Of a DNA stretch of 64,000 bases, positions 51,334 through 60,102 are shown piece by piece; position 1 is the stretch's first letter, and every line of letters begins with the position of its first letter. Location of the stretch: positions 64,001 to 128,000 of the forward strand of contig JBEPZY010000004.1 of the NCBI GenBank assembly GCA_041640595.1, read 5' to 3'. The stretch is from Gemmatales bacterium (GTDB taxonomy: Bacteria; Planctomycetota; Planctomycetia; Gemmatales; HRBIN36). The notes under the pieces are model-generated. The model ran no database searches, had not been told where the DNA came from, and saw only the letters and a list, made by a program, of their open reading frames with translations. The position numbers and the translations under genes were made by a program.

Positions 51334-52008
51334 ATGAGCCACGGTCAGCCCTTGAATTTACACTCGCCTTCTTCGCAGCTAACCAGCTCGCCGGAAATGC
51401 AGGAAAGCCGGCGGCGTTTTCTGCGCTGGCTGGTGCACGGTGTGAACACGCTGGTGGGTGTGGTGCTGGGTTTTCCGGTCGTCTGTTACCTTCTCGGTGG
51501 CCGACAACGCTCGGGCGACTCGCAAGGCTATCGTCGGGTGGCCCGCCTGAGCGATATTCTGCGAGGCGGACAAATTTCGCGGAGCACCGGTAAACGCATC
51601 TACGAAGTAGCAGTGCGGGACACTCGCCGCGATGCCTGGATGATTTATCCCAATGAGATCCTGGGTCGGGTGTGGCTGGTTTACGATCCGAAGGCGGCAC
51701 TACCCGCGGACGATCAACAAGCCTTTGAACCCGGCGAGGCTTTGAAAGCCTTTACTTCCATCTGCCCGCATCTGGGCTGTTCGATCAGCTATCATGCCGA
51801 GAGCGACCGGTTTCTCTGCCCGTGCCACACGGGAACTTTCGATGTTACCGGTCAACGGGTGAGCGGACCACCACCGCGACCGATGGACTGGCTGGAGGTG
51901 CGACTGGTGCGCGACCCAGAGAGTCCCAGGCACAACCCTGATTATTTTGTGGAAGTCAGGTACCAAACCTTCTGGCCGGAAAAGGCCGAGCGCATTCCCA
52001 AAACGTAA
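51334..52008 (+). CDS. Rieske iron-sulfur subunit of a Rieske/cytochrome b complex
   Basis: Tat motif SRRRFL plus TM; CPHLGC and CPCH boxes; GPPPRP. Confidence 0.93.
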   Translation: MSHGQPLNLHSPSSQLTSSPEMQESRRRFLRWLVHGVNTLVGVVLGFPVVCYLLGGRQRSGDSQGYRRVARLSDILRGGQISRSTGKRIYEVAVRDTRRDAWMIYPNEILGRVWLVYDPKAALPADDQQAFEPGEALKAFTSICPHLGCSISYHAESDRFLCPCHTGTFDVTGQRVSGPPPRPMDWLEVRLVRDPESPRHNPDYFVEVRYQTFWPEKAERIPKT

Positions 52009-54123
52009 GTGGCAAACCAGAAAGCGAACGAGGCAATCGTGTGGCGGCGCTTTTGTGATTGGCTGGACGACCGCACCGGATGGCTCAGCCTGTGGCGGGC
52101 TTTTCTGCTTCACGAAATTCCAGGCGGAGCGAAATGGCGCTACGTCTGGGGCAGATGCCTGCTGGTTGCCTTCCTGCTGCAAGTGCTCACCGGCGTATTG
52201 CTCATGGCCGGATACAGTCCCAGCCTTACGGGCGCCTGGGGAAGCGTTTACTATATCCAGTACGAGACTGATTTCGGCTGGCTGATTCGCGGGTTGCATC
52301 ATTTTGGCTCGCAGATGCTGATTGTGCTCCTGGTGAGCCACCTGGTTGTGGTTGTCTGGCTGGGAGCCCATCTACCGCCGCGAGAATTCACCTGGTGGCT
52401 GGGACTGTTGGCTCTGGGGATCGTCATGGTCATGGAAATGACCGGCTGGTTGTTGCCCATGGATCAAAAAGGTTACTGGGCAACACGGGTCGGTACCAAC
52501 ATCATGGGTACCGTGCCGATAATCGGGCCGTGGTTGCAAACGTTCCTGGTCGGAGGCAGCGAATACGGCCAGCGAACTCTCACCCGTTTTTTCACCCTGC
52601 ATGTAGCGGTGTTGCCGGGATTGCTGATGCTGGTCATCCTCCTGCATCTGGTTCTGGTTCAGCGACACGGGCCGACTTACCACAGAGTTTCACCGGAAAC
52701 TACTCGCTTCTGGCCACATCAGGCTGCCCGTGATGCGCTGGCGTTTGTGGTTATTTTCGGCGTGCTGGTCTGGCTCAGCTATCAACGCCACGCGGCACCT
52801 CTGAAAGACGCACCACCACGCGAATCGCTGAGCTGGTACGAAAACCTCGCCCGGGCGGGCCAGTATGGCCACGGTCCTCCGCTCATGGCACCGGTGGATC
52901 CCCAGCGCGAGTACAACATTGCCCGGCCCGAATGGTATTACCTGTTTTTGTTCCAGGCTTTGAAGTATCTGGAAGGCCCCTACGCGGTGTTCGGAACGGT
53001 GGGCATTCCGGTAGGGACAGGTATTTTGCTCTTTGTCTTGCCTTTGCTGGGACGCGGGCGCTATCGCCGATGGGGACACATTGCGGGAGTGGTCATCGTC
53101 ATGGTGTTGCTCGCGGCTGCCACGACGCTGATCGGTTTAGCCCTCTGGGCGGACTACGGACCAACGGAATCCGCCAAACGATTCCACGAAGAATTGAGCA
53201 AGGAAAAAGAACGTGCTGAGCGCGCGGTGGCGTTAGCCCATCGCGGTATTCCGCCGCAGGGTGCTGTGGAACTGCTCCGCCGCGATCCACGCCTGCGTGG
53301 GCGTGAATTATTCCAGTTGCATTGCGGCAGCTGTCATCCCTATGGCAAAGACATTCGGCCTGATAAACCGACCGCCCTGGATTTGCAGGATTTCGCCACT
53401 GCCGATTGGCTTATCCGACTTTTCGATCAGTTGCGCGACGAGAAAAGTCTGGAAGCCCAGGTACTGCCGCAAATGGCCAGTTACGTTCGCCGCGAACTCG
53501 AACGAGCTCAGCGTGCCGACGCCAAAGCCAAGGCCTCCGGTGAACTTCCTACCGCAGAACAGGAATTGCAAGAGGATTGGCGGCGCATCGCCGAATGGCT
53601 GGCCAGTCACCCACGCCGAACGGTACCTTCAGACGAACCCGAGCTTCACGAGTTGGAACAGAAGGAGCCGACTTTTGTGCAGGGCTACCGGGCTTTTGAA
53701 AAACGGTGCATGAGGTGCCACACGTATAACGGTACCGGCGGCGGGGATGTTAACGGCCCTGATCTGACAGGTTATGGTGACGCCGATTGGTTGCGGGGTT
53801 TGCTGCACGCTCCTTTTGATCGCCAGTATTACGGTCCGGCCATGGTACGCTGGTCGCGCGTTCCCAAGGAACGCATCTGGATGCCGGCTTTCCGCGATAA
53901 CGAAGGGATTCACGCGGGCTTATGGCAACGCGACTGGCAACGCACACTGGAAGAGCTCGAACGTTTGATTCCCGAAGATTCGCCGGATCGGGATAAACGA
54001 ATCGCGGTCTTGCGGGATGCGTGTCGGGTAATGCAGTTGAACGACGTCGAAAGAGAATTGATCATCCGCTTTATACTGAGAGACGATCGGCCCGTATTTG
54101 GCGGAGAACCGATCAGCCCTTGA
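52009..54123 (+). CDS. Cytochrome b (b6-like plus subunit IV) fused to dihaem cytochrome c
   Basis: Haem b His pairs (RGLHH...SHL; TLH...LLHL), GYWA, PEWY; two CxxCH motifs (CGSCH, CMRCH). Confidence 0.92.
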   Translation: MANQKANEAIVWRRFCDWLDDRTGWLSLWRAFLLHEIPGGAKWRYVWGRCLLVAFLLQVLTGVLLMAGYSPSLTGAWGSVYYIQYETDFGWLIRGLHHFGSQMLIVLLVSHLVVVVWLGAHLPPREFTWWLGLLALGIVMVMEMTGWLLPMDQKGYWATRVGTNIMGTVPIIGPWLQTFLVGGSEYGQRTLTRFFTLHVAVLPGLLMLVILLHLVLVQRHGPTYHRVSPETTRFWPHQAARDALAFVVIFGVLVWLSYQRHAAPLKDAPPRESLSWYENLARAGQYGHGPPLMAPVDPQREYNIARPEWYYLFLFQALKYLEGPYAVFGTVGIPVGTGILLFVLPLLGRGRYRRWGHIAGVVIVMVLLAAATTLIGLALWADYGPTESAKRFHEELSKEKERAERAVALAHRGIPPQGAVELLRRDPRLRGRELFQLHCGSCHPYGKDIRPDKPTALDLQDFATADWLIRLFDQLRDEKSLEAQVLPQMASYVRRELERAQRADAKAKASGELPTAEQELQEDWRRIAEWLASHPRRTVPSDEPELHELEQKEPTFVQGYRAFEKRCMRCHTYNGTGGGDVNGPDLTGYGDADWLRGLLHAPFDRQYYGPAMVRWSRVPKERIWMPAFRDNEGIHAGLWQRDWQRTLEELERLIPEDSPDRDKRIAVLRDACRVMQLNDVERELIIRFILRDDRPVFGGEPISP

Positions 54124-54453: not shown

Positions 54454-56286
54454 TCAACTGGCAGTGCTGGCCACCAGCGGCAGGGCGACGGATGCCAGAT
54501 GGCCATTCGATTCCGGCTGATCAGCATTCTCACCGGCATCGGATGCAGGCTCAGCCAGCACGTTGTCCACCAGGTAGTATAGCAGCTCGCGCAGGGAGTC
54601 AGGCTGAATCTCATCCGCGACCGCTTCCGCACGGGCACGATGTTTGTCCACGAGTTGCCTGGCACGAGCGAAAACACCGGCCCGTTCAAACAATCTCCGC
54701 ACCGTGGCCAGACGGTCCACGCTGTCCCGTTGTTCTTTGAGCAATCTGAGCAAGCGTAGCCGCTCTTCGCCGGTGAGCGTTTCCAGCGCCAGCGCCAGAA
54801 GCACGGTAGGCCGAGCACTCAGTATATCCTGCCCGGCGAGCAGTTTGTTATCTCCATCGCCTTGCCAATCCTGCAAATCGTTGAGAATCTGAAAAGCTAC
54901 ACCGAGATGCCGACAAAACTCGGCGACGGGTTTTTCGTAATGTTCGACAGGCCCAGCCAGACGCAGACCGGCATACAGGGCTGCCTCGAACGCTGGGGCG
55001 GTTTTCAAGGCATAAATCTTCAGAGCATCCAGCGGCGTCAGGGTTTTATCTCTGGCATCTCGCCAAGCCAGTTCTGCACCCTGGCCTTCCGATAATTTCA
55101 TGTGGGCTTCTGCCAGCTTGTGCAAAATATCACTGCAAGCAGCCGGTTCCACTTCGTTTCGTGCCCGAGCGGCTAACCGGTAGCCTAGGCCGATCAAATA
55201 ATCGCCGACGTTGATTGCCGTGGCTACTCCGTATTGCCGGTGCAATGTCTCCTGGCCGTAACGATAGCAGTCGTCGTCCTCAATGTCATCGTGCACCAGG
55301 GATGCCTTATGGAAAACTTCGATGGCCAGAGCAATCCGCTTGACAGCTGGCGGCAGGTAAGAGGTGTCATTCTCCGACACCGCGCGGCCGCCCTGGAGCG
55401 CATCGTAAGCTGCCAGGGTGATGAATGGGCGGAAGCGTTTGCCTCCCTGACGCAGCCAGTCATAAGCAATCGTCTCGGTCAGCCCCAGGGGATCGCCGGA
55501 CGATTGCCCCGCGCCGGTGCGAATTCGCGGTGCCAGCATTTCCAGTTCACCGTTGAACAATTCGTTAGCCGCTCGCAATAACGGCAGATAACTGCGGGTT
55601 CTGGTAGCCGGCGGGGCAGTGTGCAGCGCAATGACTTCCTGCACCCAGTGCACATCTACCGAGGTATTTTTGCAATTGGAAGACAAAAGCGGTACGGCCA
55701 GCGCGGGCACCTGTACCTGCAGCACTTTATCCAGCGCTTTTTCCAGCACATTCAGACAGGCGACGCCAACAATCCCGTCCACATGGCCGCTCAAGATGAT
55801 TTTGAGCACAATCGGAGTCCCTTCGGCAACCAGGACCTTGTAACCCAGTTCTTCGGCACGGGTTTTGAAATCGGCAATCGTGCATGCCCCGCATTTACGG
55901 CAATCCAGACCGAATTCATCGTAATCTGCCGGGCAACCTTCTGCATGTTTCAAACAATGCGGCAGCAGCAGCAATCGTTTGGAAAAATCCACTGCCATCA
56001 GTTGCTCTCGCCAGAACTCGTTGGAAAGACAAACCGCGGTAAAACCCAGATACTGCTCCCCCAAGCCCATGCGCTGCAACAAATCCTGCGACCATTGCTG
56101 TAACTGTGTCCGTGTCAGCGCTTTGCTGCGATCTACGTTTGCCAGATATTCTTTAGCAGCGGACTTGATGCGCTCGCGCAGGGCCAGGGTTTCCGGAATA
56201 ACCTTCCAGCCAGCCGTGCTGACCGGCGGACTTTTTACAGTTGCGGCAGGCGAAGCGGCCAGCGCAGATGCGGTTAGCGTATCCAC
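54454..56286 (-). CDS. DUF116-like Cys-rich domain fused to trans-isoprenyl diphosphate synthase
   Basis: N-domain LLLLPHCL...C...CRKCGAC...GVAC; C-domain GGKRFRP, HDDIEDDD (first Asp-rich motif), GQGAEL, KT, FQILNDLQD; GTG start at 56286 inferred from AAGGA RBS. Confidence 0.87.
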   Translation of the reverse strand: MDTLTASALAASPAATVKSPPVSTAGWKVIPETLALRERIKSAAKEYLANVDRSKALTRTQLQQWSQDLLQRMGLGEQYLGFTAVCLSNEFWREQLMAVDFSKRLLLLPHCLKHAEGCPADYDEFGLDCRKCGACTIADFKTRAEELGYKVLVAEGTPIVLKIILSGHVDGIVGVACLNVLEKALDKVLQVQVPALAVPLLSSNCKNTSVDVHWVQEVIALHTAPPATRTRSYLPLLRAANELFNGELEMLAPRIRTGAGQSSGDPLGLTETIAYDWLRQGGKRFRPFITLAAYDALQGGRAVSENDTSYLPPAVKRIALAIEVFHKASLVHDDIEDDDCYRYGQETLHRQYGVATAINVGDYLIGLGYRLAARARNEVEPAACSDILHKLAEAHMKLSEGQGAELAWRDARDKTLTPLDALKIYALKTAPAFEAALYAGLRLAGPVEHYEKPVAEFCRHLGVAFQILNDLQDWQGDGDNKLLAGQDILSARPTVLLALALETLTGEERLRLLRLLKEQRDSVDRLATVRRLFERAGVFARARQLVDKHRARAEAVADEIQPDSLRELLYYLVDNVLAEPASDAGENADQPESNGHLASVALPLVASTAS

Positions 56287-56449
56287 GGGGCAGGTTCCTT
56301 TCAGGCTGGTCGGCGTCTGGGCAGGCGCACCGTCAGCACATGGGCCTATCGGCTGCCATGAGCGATGGTGCCGGTGCAGCGCCGAATTTCTTTGCAATTC
56401 GGTTGTCCGGCCTGATGTGGCACTGTTTGGCTATTCGCGACACTAGCAA

Positions 56450-58321
56450 CTACTGATATGAAAAAGGCAGGTGCAAGGCACGCCTCAGGGCCTGAGTGGC
56501 AAAAATGGTCGGATAGAGTCGCTCGTAGTACCAGAGTCGGGCGAAGTATAAGCCGATGGGCGCTGGAGTGAGCTGGTCTGTTTCCACACATTCCACGAGC
56601 CAGACCAGACCGCGGTGAATGCTGGCGGAAACGAGCCATTCGCCCTGCTTTTTGGGGACTGCCAGCAGCCAGGCGAGCAAGGCATCGGTAGCCAGTGCCG
56701 TCTCTTCGACAGTTCCTGGCAAGCCGCGATCACCGCCCCAGCTGCCATCGCGATTCTGTGCTGCAAGCAACCATTGCACAGCTCGCCGTGCCGGTTCGCT
56801 GTCCGCCAGACGCCAGGCCAGCAAGCCATGCAAGACCCTGGCCGTGCCATACGTGAGGTTCGCTTCTTCGGGAGCCAGCTCATTGCCAAACCAGAGCGGT
56901 TGCCAGGCCCCATTCGCCTGCTGTTGCGCCAGCAGGAAACGCAAGCCTTTGTGCGCCGCTGCGACCATGCGGGCGATCACCTGACTTGCCAGCACCCGAA
57001 CGCTGGCATCCGCGGCTAACCGCCAGCGCCGTACTCGCGGTGCCCAGCTCGCCAGTGCGCGCAGAGCATGTGCTGTCAAATCGCTGGCACTCCGGTCAAA
57101 CGGTAATCGGCCCCATCCCCGACAGAAAGTCGGCCAGCCACCATCGCGATTTTGCAGGTCGAGGAGCCATTTCAAACCCAGTAGCACCGTTTCCGCGTGA
57201 GCGTCAGCGAGAGTCTCGGGCAACAGTTCTGCCAGTGCCAGCAATGCTCCGGAGGTATCGTCGGCATCGGGCACACTTCCGCTCAAGTGCGACCAGCCCC
57301 ACCCGCCAGGTTCCGCTCCTGTGTAAGGATGCCTGCGCCGCACCTGTTGCTGCAACAGCCATTGTCGCGTAGCCTCTGGATCGGCCAGATTGTCCGCACC
57401 CAGAGCGACAACACTCAGAGTGGTGAGCCAGACCGAGAGATTGGAATCAATGGGCCAGCTACCGTCCCTGCGAACACTGTTCAGGAGAAACGCGATGCCG
57501 TTTCGACAAACCGGATGCTGTGCATGACCGCAACTTGCCAGAGCCATGACCACGAACGCGGTCAGGGGCACCGCTTCGAGGAAGCCGCCACTGGTCGGTT
57601 GCAATCGCCGTAATCGGTTCAGCGTCGGCTCAACGGCCCACTTTCTCCAGAGCTGACCCCGGCGGTGATACATGACCGCCTGGCCTATAGCAATCAGTGC
57701 CGGCAACGCATAGCTGACCACCGGTAAACGCGCGAATCGGTACCAGGACTGCGGCAAGACCGCCAGCTCAAAGGGTAAATGCGGTACTTGCTCCCACGGT
57801 ATCAAACCCGCCAGCGCTGCGTTCATCAGGATTGGCACGGAGAAGGTTCGGTCTGAACCGTATCTGCGTCGCACCGCTTCAGCATGAGCCAGGGCTCCGG
57901 GGCCGCAGATACGGTCGAGATACGCAGTGGCTGCTTTATCCGCCGCGATCGACGCCATCCCGGAATCGGCACCTAACCACGGTTGGGCCAGCTGCAACGC
58001 CGCCCGAACCAGCATCGTCGTCGAAATATTGCCGCGACTGCACGGGGTATCACCCCAGCTTCCATCGTCTCGCTGAGTGTCAAGTAACCAGCGAACTCCG
58101 TGGTCAACGCGCTGCCGCAATACTGCCGCGGCAGCATGGCTTTTCTGTCCCCAGATGCTGAGAGCCGATACTGCCGTGGCTGTGCTCAGTGCCGAACTCG
58201 CCAACTCGCCAACCCAGTATCCTTCTGGTAGCTGCTCATCCACAAGACGCCGCACCAGTCGTCGGTAAGCCTGCAGCAGACGCTCGCGGTCCAGCTTTGG
58301 CGTCAATGCGGTTACCCTCAC
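56450..58321 (-). CDS. Squalene-hopene cyclase-like class II terpene cyclase
   Basis: QW repeats ([28 protein letters not shown]), DxDD motif PDADDT; GTG start overlaps the purF stop (GTGA). Confidence 0.88.
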
Positions 58322-59907
58322 GAAACCGAGCCGGTTGGTTGTTCGACGATTTCGTAAGTCCGCCGGTTACAGCCCTCCTGGTGCCGCAACGCCAGCTGAT
58401 AAAGGCGCTCTCCCGTCGGCGTAGGATAGCGACCGGTGATGCAGGCCTGGCACAGACGGTTAGCATCCATACCAATGCACCGCGCCACAGCTTCGATCGG
58501 CAGATAGAGCAAACTGTCCGCTCCCAATTCCGCCGCCATGCGTTGCAGTTCTTCCAGGGTTGGCCGAAGGCTTTGCAGATGTTTCGGGGCGAACAGTTCG
58601 TTCACCGTGGACATATCAATGCCGTAAAAACATGGGGCGACGATGGGCGGACAGGCCACGCGAACGTGAATTTCTCTGGCTCCGCCCCGACGACGCATCT
58701 CCTGCAGAAGTGCCTTCATCGTGGTGCTGCGAACAATCGTGTCTTCCACCAGTAAAACGCGCTTGCCTTCCAGAACTTCCCGCAACGGGGTGTATTTCAT
58801 CCGCGCTCGCGTCGCCCGATCTTCGCCTTGGATGAAGGTTCGGCCGACATAGCGGTTGCGCATCAGGCCTTCAACCGAGGGCAAGCCCAGCTCATAAGCC
58901 ATCGCATCCGCGGCGGCTTTACCGGTATCCGGAACGGGCACGACTATCGTGTTGCTGTCCAGCGGCACCAGACCGAGTCGTTTCTCCTGCCAGGCCAGTT
59001 CGCGTCCCAGGGCACATCGCACGCTGTACACACCGCGGCCTTCAATGCTGCTTGCGGCATTGGCGAAATAAATCCATTCGAAGAAACAATGGGCTGTCGT
59101 CTTGCTGCGGGCGAAGTATTCCAGGCGAACCTCGTTGTCCTGGATGATGATCATCTGCCCGGGTTCAACATCGCGGATATCGGTAAAACCGAGATTACTG
59201 AGGGCAACGCTTTCACTGGCGGCAGCGAAAAGCGGGCCGTCTATCGCATACACCAGCGGGCGAAAACCCAGCGGATCCCGCGCCACTACCATGTCGCCTC
59301 GTGCGTTGAGATAAACGATGTTGTAGGCTCCTTCGAAGCGCTGGCTCAGATTGTGGAACACTTCCACCAGGTCCGGTTCCTGGTCGCCGCGCAGCTCGTA
59401 ACTGAGATAGTGCATGATCACTTCCGTGTCCGTATCGCGGGTCAGATGATAATCCCGCTGCGACAACAACTCGTTTTTCAACTCCTGGTAGTTGGCCAGC
59501 TGACCGTTGAAAGCGAAGCTGAACCATTTCCATCGGCAACCGTGATAGCGCTGGAACGGCTGGGCGTAACTTTTTTTATCGCTGCCGCAGGTGGCGTAAC
59601 GCACATGCCCGATGGCTGCATACCCGGCATACTGCTGCATCAGCGACTCGAACTTGCCGCGATGGTTCAGCCGCAGTGCCTCGATCACCGTGCCGATGTC
59701 TTTGTAGGTATCGAGCAATTTCTCGCGGTGGGGATTGAAGGTGGTGATTCCTGCGGCCAGTTGACCGCGATTCTGCAAATCCAGCAACATGCGCGGCATG
59801 AGGCGTACGATTTGTTCACGACCACCCGGAGGGGCGAGCGCACTGCGTTCCGGTCGGTCGAGATAATACAGGGCTGCAATGCCGCACTCGTGCTGCAGGC
59901 AAAGCAT
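58318..59907 (-). CDS. purF: Amidophosphoribosyltransferase
   Basis: Short propeptide then [41 protein letters not shown]. Confidence 0.95.
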
Positions 59908-60102
59908 AGACGTTTCCCGTGAGGGCGCTGGTCTCCGCGTGAAATTATATTGGCCACACGCCAATTCGCTGTCGGTTGTTCTCCAGGCTGTTCCTGGCCA
60001 GACCGCAAACCCGTTCACTACGCTTACTACAACAGCATCCGATATCGGCACCAGGAAGCTGGCCCCACAGAGAAATTTTCCACTAAAGTATCAAGCAAGG
60101 CT

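Follow-up and report, generated by a model that had tools for sequence, protein, structure and literature searches.

Cyclic terpenoids order membranes and leave molecular fossils. The sections of Santana-Molina et al. 2020 (PMC7306690) on planctomycete proteins resembling squalene-hopene cyclases (SHCs), termed SHC-like, describe enzymes that keep the catalytic residues, usually have a polyprenyl synthase nearby and may use a precursor other than squalene. Passages of a 2025 survey of triterpenoid cyclases in Molecular Biology and Evolution (PMC12414744) name the substrate and product of these 'SHC-like' cyclases as an open question. For the domain DUF116, the relevant section of Makarova et al. 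2015 (PMC5898192) predicts a flavodoxin-like fold with an electron-transfer role and names a DUF116-polyprenyl synthetase fusion in Pirellula staleyi. Here we analyse a stretch of 64,000 nucleotides (the window) from a Gemmatales bacterium (assembly GCA_041640595.1, contig JBEPZY010000004.1, positions 64,001-128,000 of the forward strand), in which the gene for an SHC-like cyclase is followed by one for a fusion of DUF116 with a trans-isoprenyl diphosphate synthase. Based on comparative sequence analysis, we propose with a probability of about 0.6 that this pair is the local core of a conserved, uncharacterised Planctomycetota terpenoid module that contains the 'SHC-like' cyclases and would make a cyclic polyprenoid from something other than squalene. 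A reading of the DNA from its letters alone (the sequence-only reading) had called the pair a candidate uncharacterised terpenoid pathway. Literature searches on DUF116 (PF01976/COG1852/arCOG02078) and SHC-like cyclases, with most subscription journals outside their reach, found no characterised function for either; the idea itself is not new, being already in print in the cited portions of the three papers above, and the pair is a further member of a module noticed there.

The cyclase (P0001) matches both SHC Pfam domains, SQHop_cyclase_C and SQHop_cyclase_N, which together make up the two-domain alpha/alpha toroid, and it carries six QW-like repeats ([QR]x2-5GxW at residues 30, 83, 284, 390, 466 and 522). 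In a profile alignment its DxDD motif, DADD, falls on DVDD 374-377 of the solved SHC of Alicyclobacillus acidocaldarius, and the equivalents of H451, W312, W489 and Y495 are also kept. The three aspartates (D352, D354 and D355) are invariant in 19 cyclase orthologues. Because the DADD and the His and Tyr equivalents are retained, P0001 would have the strong-acid, SHC-type proton-donor set and be able to start from a plain terminal double bond.

By its scores on curated models, P0001 is no canonical SHC. It reached 113.6 bits on the SHC equivalog TIGR01507 (cut-off 431.1), 110.1 on TIGR01787, the broad model of SHC and oxidosqualene cyclase (OSC) (cut-off 322.7), 90.2 on the OSC model (cut-off 851) and 30.8 on the tetrahymanol synthase model (cut-off 500). 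When we searched P0001 against a phylum sample of 151 Planctomycetota genomes, the matches fell in two separate tiers: 39 genomes with matches at E<=5.7e-88 and 43-57% identity, and 24 further genomes with only matches at E>=3.6e-22 and 27-36% identity. Four proteins of the second tier served as a control, and 4/4 of these planctomycete cyclases scored 715-755 bits on TIGR01507 (two of the four come from genomes that also hold the first-tier type), whereas 3/3 first-tier, SHC-like proteins scored 103-137. A maximum-likelihood tree of 19 first-tier and four canonical cyclases split the two sets with 100/100 support along a branch of about 8.7 changes per site; holding only two groups, this tree measures the depth of divergence rather than placement.

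The second protein (P0002 as the full open frame) matches DUF116 at residues 108-256 (133.9 bits, cut-off 25) and polyprenyl_synt at residues 311-566 (158.9 bits, cut-off 27). The domain matches of both proteins are strong hidden Markov model matches, beyond chance. The Cys pattern PHC..C..CxxCxxC..GVAC..C is real, with cysteines at P0002 residues 148, 155, 166, 169, 172, 214 and 242, and all seven stay unchanged throughout three alignments of the family, with 16, 69 and 74 members. Thus far the sequence-only reading holds in its particulars: it had described a class II cyclase with an intact DxDD and QW repeats, followed by a Cys-rich domain joined to a trans-prenyl synthase whose second aspartate-rich motif (SARM) is NDLQD, and the domain searches it suggested identify cyclase, DUF116 and synthase alike. 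So too the placement it asked about, as P0001 lies far from canonical SHC and OSC.

We modelled the DUF116 region (residues 60-300, from 69 sequences) with a predicted local distance difference test (pLDDT) score of 85.2 and a predicted template modelling (pTM) score of 0.82. The model predicts three N-terminal helices followed by a Rossmann/flavodoxin-like core, in agreement with the flavodoxin-like fold predicted in the DUF116 section of PMC5898192. A sequence search against the PDB gave no match in fusion residues 1-300. With the model as query, Foldseek returned 0 matches at E<=1e-3 (its best rows were B12-binding, lumazine synthase and receiver domains), and the best Z of VIA-align against 48,161 chains was 6.2, under that tool's noise level of about 8. 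A look-up in the ESM Atlas found only DUF116 clusters (0.75-0.81) and no new lead. Structure comparison of the predicted domain therefore reveals a generic Rossmann/flavodoxin-like core only. The full-length AlphaFold model of the fusion has a pLDDT of 89.6 and a pTM of 0.89, on which basis the DUF116 and synthase domains are predicted to form one packed unit.

The synthase domain combines a conserved active-site framework with a distinctive deviation. The stretch HKASL[IV]HDDIED around the first aspartate-rich motif (FARM) is present in 21/21 fusion orthologues, the KAS before the FARM in 120/120 close homologues, and the GGKRxRP/AGKRWRP, GQG, KT and FQ motifs are also kept in the orthologues. 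Four residues after the FARM, RYG replaces the canonical RRG. The family alignment (A1) shows no variation at R342 or Y343, and RYG occurs in 120/120 close homologues; the two other synthases of the genome have RRH and RRG at this position. Among the best 150 cluster representatives, 100 had a recognised FARM context, of which 94 carry RY-x and one RRG; all 93 representatives of at least 480 residues bear the synthase domain. The sequence-only reading had singled out NDLQD instead. This motif is real in the window and NDxxD is present in 120/120 close homologues, but it is not a trait of the family: the SARM is NDxxD in 8/21 orthologues, exactly those with the gene order cyclase then fusion, and DDxxD in 13/21, so the Asn marks a clade, and the family-wide deviation is RYG. 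In chrysanthemyl diphosphate synthase an N-first SARM is reportedly linked with irregular coupling, though a published passage on that enzyme does not give the motif. Taking NDxxD as a mark of irregular coupling was weakened as an idea, since the motif is clade-specific.

What the synthase makes is less easily read. All 16 NCBIfam models matched by the domain were below cut-off, the best at 135.5 bits against 450. Small residues (Ala or Ser) at positions -5 and -4 before the FARM reportedly fit medium- or long-chain synthases, according to chain-length work by Ohnuma and by Wang; if this rule applies, the Ala and Ser found at these positions suggest a medium or long product.

The two genes are inherited together. 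DUF116 was found in 68/151 genomes of the phylum sample and inside an open frame of at least 488 residues in 40, of which 38 are among the 39 genomes with the first-tier cyclase. Put the other way, 38/39 cyclase genomes carry the long-frame fusion; in 28/39 both genes lie within 5 kb on one contig, and in 10/39 they are on different contigs of fragmented assemblies. The exception (G076) has the cyclase, but its DUF116 match is confined to a short frame on a different contig. We also scanned 185,579 species genomes with the fusion alone and confirmed at least 595 loci; nearly all of the best 80 bear the label Planctomycetota. Of these 80, 62 hold the cyclase in the DNA fetched, as do 37/42 of the fusion-selected loci whose flanks each reach at least 5 kb, a figure from which 20 loci (L011-L030) were excluded because they had been picked for holding both genes. 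The co-occurrence that the sequence-only reading had wanted checked across genomes is thus plain. Four of the loci (L045, L060, L105 and L108) are typical planctomycete fusion genes in metagenome-assembled genomes labelled Kuenenia, Chitinophaga or Alcaligenaceae; these labels are likely binning or labelling errors rather than gene transfer.

We then turned to the host genome (G000; 95.5% complete, 42 contigs). The SQS_PSY family (Sqs, also HpnC/HpnD and CrtB/CrtM) has 0 matches both in the window, where the sequence-only reading had already seen no squalene synthase or hpn genes, and in the whole genome; the same search found the family in 8/14 control genomes. The window cyclase is the only strong SHC/OSC-family match in the genome. 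There are three prenyl synthase genes: a farnesyl diphosphate (FPP) synthase (317 bits, cut-off 275), a long-chain-type enzyme with RRH and DDLLD, and the fusion, which, given the other two, does not serve as the housekeeping enzyme. The genome also has IspH (313.5 bits), and a role for DUF116 as its replacement was rejected on that ground. Going by known gene families, this hot-spring planctomycete would make no hopanoids, sterols or C30/C40 carotenoids. Across the sample, 15/39 genomes with this cyclase type are without SQS_PSY, seven of those 15 being at least 90% complete; the remaining 24 have SQS_PSY, several together with a canonical SHC, so the pair is independent of squalene synthesis and not exclusive of it.

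In relatives the pair belongs to a larger set of genes. A pathway of two genes, as the sequence-only reading had it, describes the window correctly in that the pair co-occurs, but the module is larger, with operons in relatives that add radical S-adenosylmethionine (SAM), ferredoxin-domain, GcvH-like, CobW-like, IscS-like and toroid proteins. There are two gene orders: cyclase then fusion, as in the window; and fusion, a protein of about 300 residues, then cyclase. This partner is a single alpha/alpha-toroid protein (PF00432, 1e-13). At locus L014, ten genes lie in a row, and for nine of them stop and start codons overlap or abut; the order is GcvH-like protein, CobW-family GTPase, IscS-like cysteine desulfurase, radical SAM protein, 112-residue protein, ferredoxin-domain protein (2x[4Fe-4S] type), fusion, small toroid protein, cyclase and 169-residue protein. 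None of the proteins of this operon reached an NCBIfam equivalog cut-off; the GcvH-like protein keeps the lipoyl Lys. Among the 42 well-flanked loci, a ferredoxin-domain protein occurs in 18, a GcvH-like protein in 16, a radical SAM protein in 11 and the small toroid protein in 8. The small toroid partners (L014, 9702-10631; L115, 5378-6436) are about 280-350 residues long, match PF00432, have no DxDD and share conserved PDLYYT and PDLLST.

Orthologues of the radical SAM partner (E<=7.5e-87) were found in 30/151 genomes, all 30 among the 39 cyclase genomes. Nine cyclase genomes are without it, and three of these (G046, G143 and G050, at loci L013, L016 and L029) have a B12-type radical SAM protein instead. 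In this sub-clade, which includes L075, the B12-binding-type gene lies upstream of the cyclase and replaces the SPASM/twitch type; at L029 the genes downstream encode an ABC ATPase and a large permease of the FtsX type, which could be an export system for the product. The partner is not HpnH, as the orthologue in the host genome scored 37.2 bits on TIGR03470 (cut-off 225). For the radical SAM protein of the relatives' operons, the best matches are peptide maturases, all far under their cut-offs. Second-tier paralogues of the radical SAM protein (29-36% identity, frames of about 470-510 residues) occur in 17 genomes without this cyclase, and 11 of the 17 have a stand-alone DUF116, so DUF116 may partner this radical SAM family where the cyclase is absent. 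For a Bipolaricaulota isolate, the figure legend of a 2025 preprint lists separate neighbouring genes for a DUF116 protein, IspH, an SHC, an adenosylhopene transferase and a polyprenyl synthetase, which is an independent hint of the same association.

In the window genome, homologues of the partner genes are scattered and none lies in the window (Table 1); the 112-residue protein of L014 had no tblastn match in G000. Within the minus-strand region 3878-8138 of L113 (G000 C7:84000-96000), the GcvH-like homologue sits between genes for a DGC-domain protein and a HemN-like radical SAM protein, with a pyrroloquinoline quinone (PQQ)-type beta-propeller gene further along and a second, divergent GcvH-like gene.

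Table 1. Positions of the genes, domains and motifs discussed, in window coordinates; entries beginning with G000 lie elsewhere in the host genome.
Feature	Position	Strand	Match or remark
purF	58318-60051	-	TIGR01134 343 bits, just below cut-off 350
'SHC-like' class II (protonation-type) terpene cyclase P0001, 623 residues	56450-58321	-	PF13243 2.3e-37; PF13249 1.9e-21
DxDD proton-donor motif DADD, P0001 residues 352-355	57257-57268	-	
DUF116::trans-isoprenyl diphosphate synthase fusion, 610 residues from GTG 56286	54454-56286	-	
Fusion open reading frame P0002, open up to TTG 56397, 647 residues	54454-56397	-	
DUF116 domain, seven invariant Cys including CxxCxxC, putative Fe-S/metal site	55630-56076	-	PF01976 4.2e-39
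trans-Prenyl diphosphate synthase domain	54700-55467	-	PF00348 1.7e-46
FARM DDIED after K-A-S-L-V-H, with small residues in positions -5 and -4	55276-55290	-	
RYG at the canonical RRG position	55255-55263	-	
SARM variant NDLQD	54868-54882	-	
Radical SAM homologue	G000 C1:149171-150355		60% identity to L014's
Ferredoxin-domain homologue	G000 C8:75467-76525		48% identity to L014's
GcvH-like homologue	G000 C7:89028-89465		50% identity to L014's
CobW-like homologue	G000 C1:113904-114983		40% identity to L014's
Toroid protein homologue	G000 C5:58431-59303		30% identity to L014's

On the minus strand of the window, purF, the cyclase gene and the fusion gene lie in a row, and the GTG start of the cyclase shares the tetranucleotide GTGA at 58318-58321 with the purF stop. 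The true start of the fusion is likely the GTG in Table 1, which gives a protein as long as the database copy P0004. Relatives do not have purF as a neighbour, with only L030 showing a purF-like gene in the fetched flanks. On the downstream side (51334-54123), genes for a Rieske protein and for a 704-residue cytochrome b fused to a c-type cytochrome domain converge on the fusion gene. These, purF and the other neighbours in the window (NAD kinase, an FG-GAP protein, a DegT aminotransferase and two sulfatases) are unrelated to the pair. A genomic island was considered and rejected, as composition gives no sign of one: the GC content of the region (0.565-0.608) is inside the window's range.

The source names of the nearest relatives are Gemmatales and Gemmataceae, and near-identical DNA was seen in hot-spring and microbial-mat metagenomes. 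Contigs 95-100% alike to fragments of both genes were present in four metatranscriptome libraries from four studies. One library (X13) holds a single contig of 6,024 bases that runs from 54983 to beyond 60300 and covers most of the fusion gene, the cyclase gene and purF; three others (X16, X18 and X19) hold short contigs inside both genes, and the gaps without small RNA contigs in these three carry no information. RNA libraries can hold DNA, and a contig spanning genes is not proof of a single transcript, so we take these contigs as a weak hint that both genes are expressed.

Based on these observations, we propose the following scheme. The synthase domain would take an allylic prenyl diphosphate from the methylerythritol phosphate (MEP) pathway and the housekeeping FPP synthase, and build from it a dedicated substrate other than squalene; a regular polyprenyl chain, about C30 in length or longer, is the most likely form. 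The packed DUF116 domain would bear a Cys-ligated metal or Fe-S centre with a redox or sensing function at the synthase step. The cyclase would then protonate the terminal double bond through its SHC-type DxDD/His/Tyr set and fold the chain into a polycyclic lipid, which would be the organism's only hopanoid- or sterol-like membrane lipid. This genome does have the partner genes that stand beside the pair in relatives, but in scattered positions. We count in favour of this scheme the domains and motifs, the distance of P0001 from canonical SHC, the lack of SQS_PSY matches, the linkage of the two genes, the other synthases of the genome, the predicted packing of the fusion, the small residues before the FARM, the weak hint of expression and the like conclusion in PMC7306690. 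To these we add the Fe-S setting of the relatives' overlapping-gene operons, with their IscS-like desulfurase, CobW-like GTPase, radical SAM, ferredoxin-domain and GcvH-like proteins. The sequences show the domains and motifs, the linkage, the separation from SHC, the missing SQS_PSY family and the additional synthases; metal binding, chain length, the sequence of steps, the product and its membrane role are inferred, and the interpretation given by the sequence-only reading is to that extent supported in part.

Several observations weigh against our proposal. In the linkage data, the cyclase and fusion of G008 are 547 kb apart, two genomes (G118 and G019) have a long frame with a weak DUF116 match and are without this cyclase, and 5/42 well-flanked fusion loci have no cyclase nearby. 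The partner genes are outside the window and tied to its pair by homology only, and the RNA evidence consists of contigs from libraries that may contain DNA. For the product, the ranking of curated models favours short-chain and geranylgeranyl diphosphate (GGPP) types (135, 120 and 105 bits) over octaprenyl (90), which lends no support to the guess of a long chain. The DDxxD clade is also without the usual GK after the SARM. FPP synthase structures show that the second Arg of RRG binds the diphosphate of isopentenyl diphosphate (IPP). The invariant RYG affects this residue, so chain elongation with IPP may not be what the enzyme does.

Such a family, present in hundreds of planctomycete species, could account for orphan biomarkers and also for membrane stiffening in bacteria without hopanoids or sterols. 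The window offers a clean test case: a minimal pair in a genome where no SQS_PSY gene and no other strong cyclase was found, from a hot-spring organism whose proteins are, for that reason, likely stable. A bolder extension, which we regard as possible and hold only tentatively, is that bacteria of the Planctomycetes-Verrucomicrobia-Chlamydiae (PVC) group have a third route to a polycyclic membrane lipid, independent of both squalene and oxygen. Here the RYG synthase, its fused Fe-S domain and the dedicated radical SAM protein would perform an unprecedented reductive or radical step on a prenyl diphosphate before the SHC-like cyclase closes the rings, and an orphan terpane biomarker could derive from the product.

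An unlikely alternative, though the best of those we weighed against our proposal, is that the synthase, instead of elongating chains, joins an allylic prenyl diphosphate to something besides IPP (a second prenyl unit, for example, head-to-head or head-to-middle), with the Fe-S domain giving electrons as NADPH does in squalene synthase. The result would be a squalene-like hydrocarbon, made independently of squalene synthase and folded by the cyclase. The exchange of RRG for RYG across the family fits this idea, as do the N-first SARM in the window's clade, the loss of GK after the SARM in the other and a redox-type Cys domain predicted to pack on the synthase; a host without an SQS_PSY gene and a cyclase whose proton-donor set suits an unactivated alkene are further points in its favour. 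However, GGKRxRP, KT, FQ and the FARM, the usual set for condensation with IPP, are all kept, and a second squalene route would be redundant in the pair genomes that have SQS_PSY and, in several cases, a canonical SHC. Our literature searches turned up no precedent for Fe-S-dependent coupling in this fold.

We consider it improbable that the module modifies a protein or peptide, with ComQ-like prenyl transfer to a small Cys-rich protein or the GcvH-like carrier, cross-links made by the SPASM/twitch radical SAM protein and a cyclase that folds the attached chain. According to the part of PMC5331326 that deals with its motifs, ComQ has the same fold, prenylates Trp and needs an NDxxx pseudo-SARM, a change from N to D crippling the enzyme. 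The relatives' operons hold possible components, namely a radical SAM protein nearest to peptide maturases (at scores far below cut-off), a 112-residue protein and a carrier with a lipoyl Lys. The other clade of the fusion family has DDxxD, however, the Lys and Arg of the IPP site are kept, the 112-residue protein has no tblastn match in this genome, and the cyclase keeps the full two-domain SHC-type build with its lipid-cyclase residues.

Least probable of all, and already disfavoured, is a divergent squalene-hopene cyclase acting on squalene beside an ordinary FPP/GGPP or quinone side-chain synthase that carries an accessory domain: relatives do carry the database names 'squalene--hopene cyclase' and 'geranylgeranyl pyrophosphate synthase' and the DxDD set is SHC-like, but P0001 falls far below the SHC cut-off that true planctomycete SHCs exceed, the genome search gave no SQS_PSY gene, FPP and long-chain synthases exist apart from the fusion, and the pair is strictly co-inherited.

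Returning to a dedicated precursor other than squalene, we compared the locus with the systems closest to it. In the descriptions given by the sections on the 'SHC-like' or 'unknown function' clade in PMC7306690 and PMC12414744, the members come from PVC bacteria, are 550-700 residues long, retain their catalytic residues and are encoded close to a polyprenyl synthase. P0001, of planctomycete origin and with a synthase next door, departs from this in no respect, and by description it is a candidate member of the clade. What the present analysis adds to the printed description is the fused DUF116, the RYG signature, the N/D split of the SARM, Fe-S and radical SAM partners in scattered places and a host genome without SQS_PSY. 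With the A. acidocaldarius SHC (PDB 1gsz/2sqc; TIGR01507), P0001 has in common the two-domain toroid, the QW repeats, the DxDD and the H451/Y495/W312/W489 equivalents; it differs in a score far under the curated one, a separate deep clade, a genome in which no squalene supply was found and co-inheritance with a synthase of its own.

Other SHC-family pathways likewise use polyprenyl chains. The Bacillus sporulenol pathway (HepS/HepT heptaprenyl synthase, YtpB and SqhC), as outlined in a section of PMC7306690, resembles our proposal in giving a regular polyprenyl chain, not squalene, to an SHC-family cyclase, whereas in our case the synthase shares its chain with a Cys-rich domain, the cyclase is of another clade and the partners are Fe-S and radical SAM proteins; a YtpB step is not known here, though no search aimed at it was made. 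Lon15 and AtoE, the epoxy-polyprenyl cyclases treated in passages of PMC12414744, form a sister clade and are class II cyclases acting on head-to-tail polyprenyl chains. They come from Actinomycetes and use epoxidised substrates, whereas P0001 keeps the strong-acid DxDD/His set suited to a plain alkene and has no adjoining epoxidase.

The two halves of the fusion have relatives of their own. Archaeal DUF116 proteins (arCOG02078/COG1852), on the account in the DUF116 section of PMC5898192, belong to the same Pfam family and likewise have CxxCxxC and a predicted flavodoxin-like fold, but they stand alone, with two predicted N-terminal membrane helices, near genes for sulfite reductase or ArsA-like proteins; in the window, the models predict three soluble helices before the core and a domain packed on the synthase. 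ComQ, in the excerpted part of PMC5331326, is a Trp prenyltransferase of the isoprenyl diphosphate synthase fold that has PF00348, the FARM and an N-first SARM in common with the window protein. ComQ shows that enzymes of this fold can use acceptors besides IPP. Of the SARM, ComQ retains the second Asp alone, whereas the fusion family keeps N/D-D-x-x-D together with the Lys and Arg of the IPP site, in a locus with no ComX-like gene.

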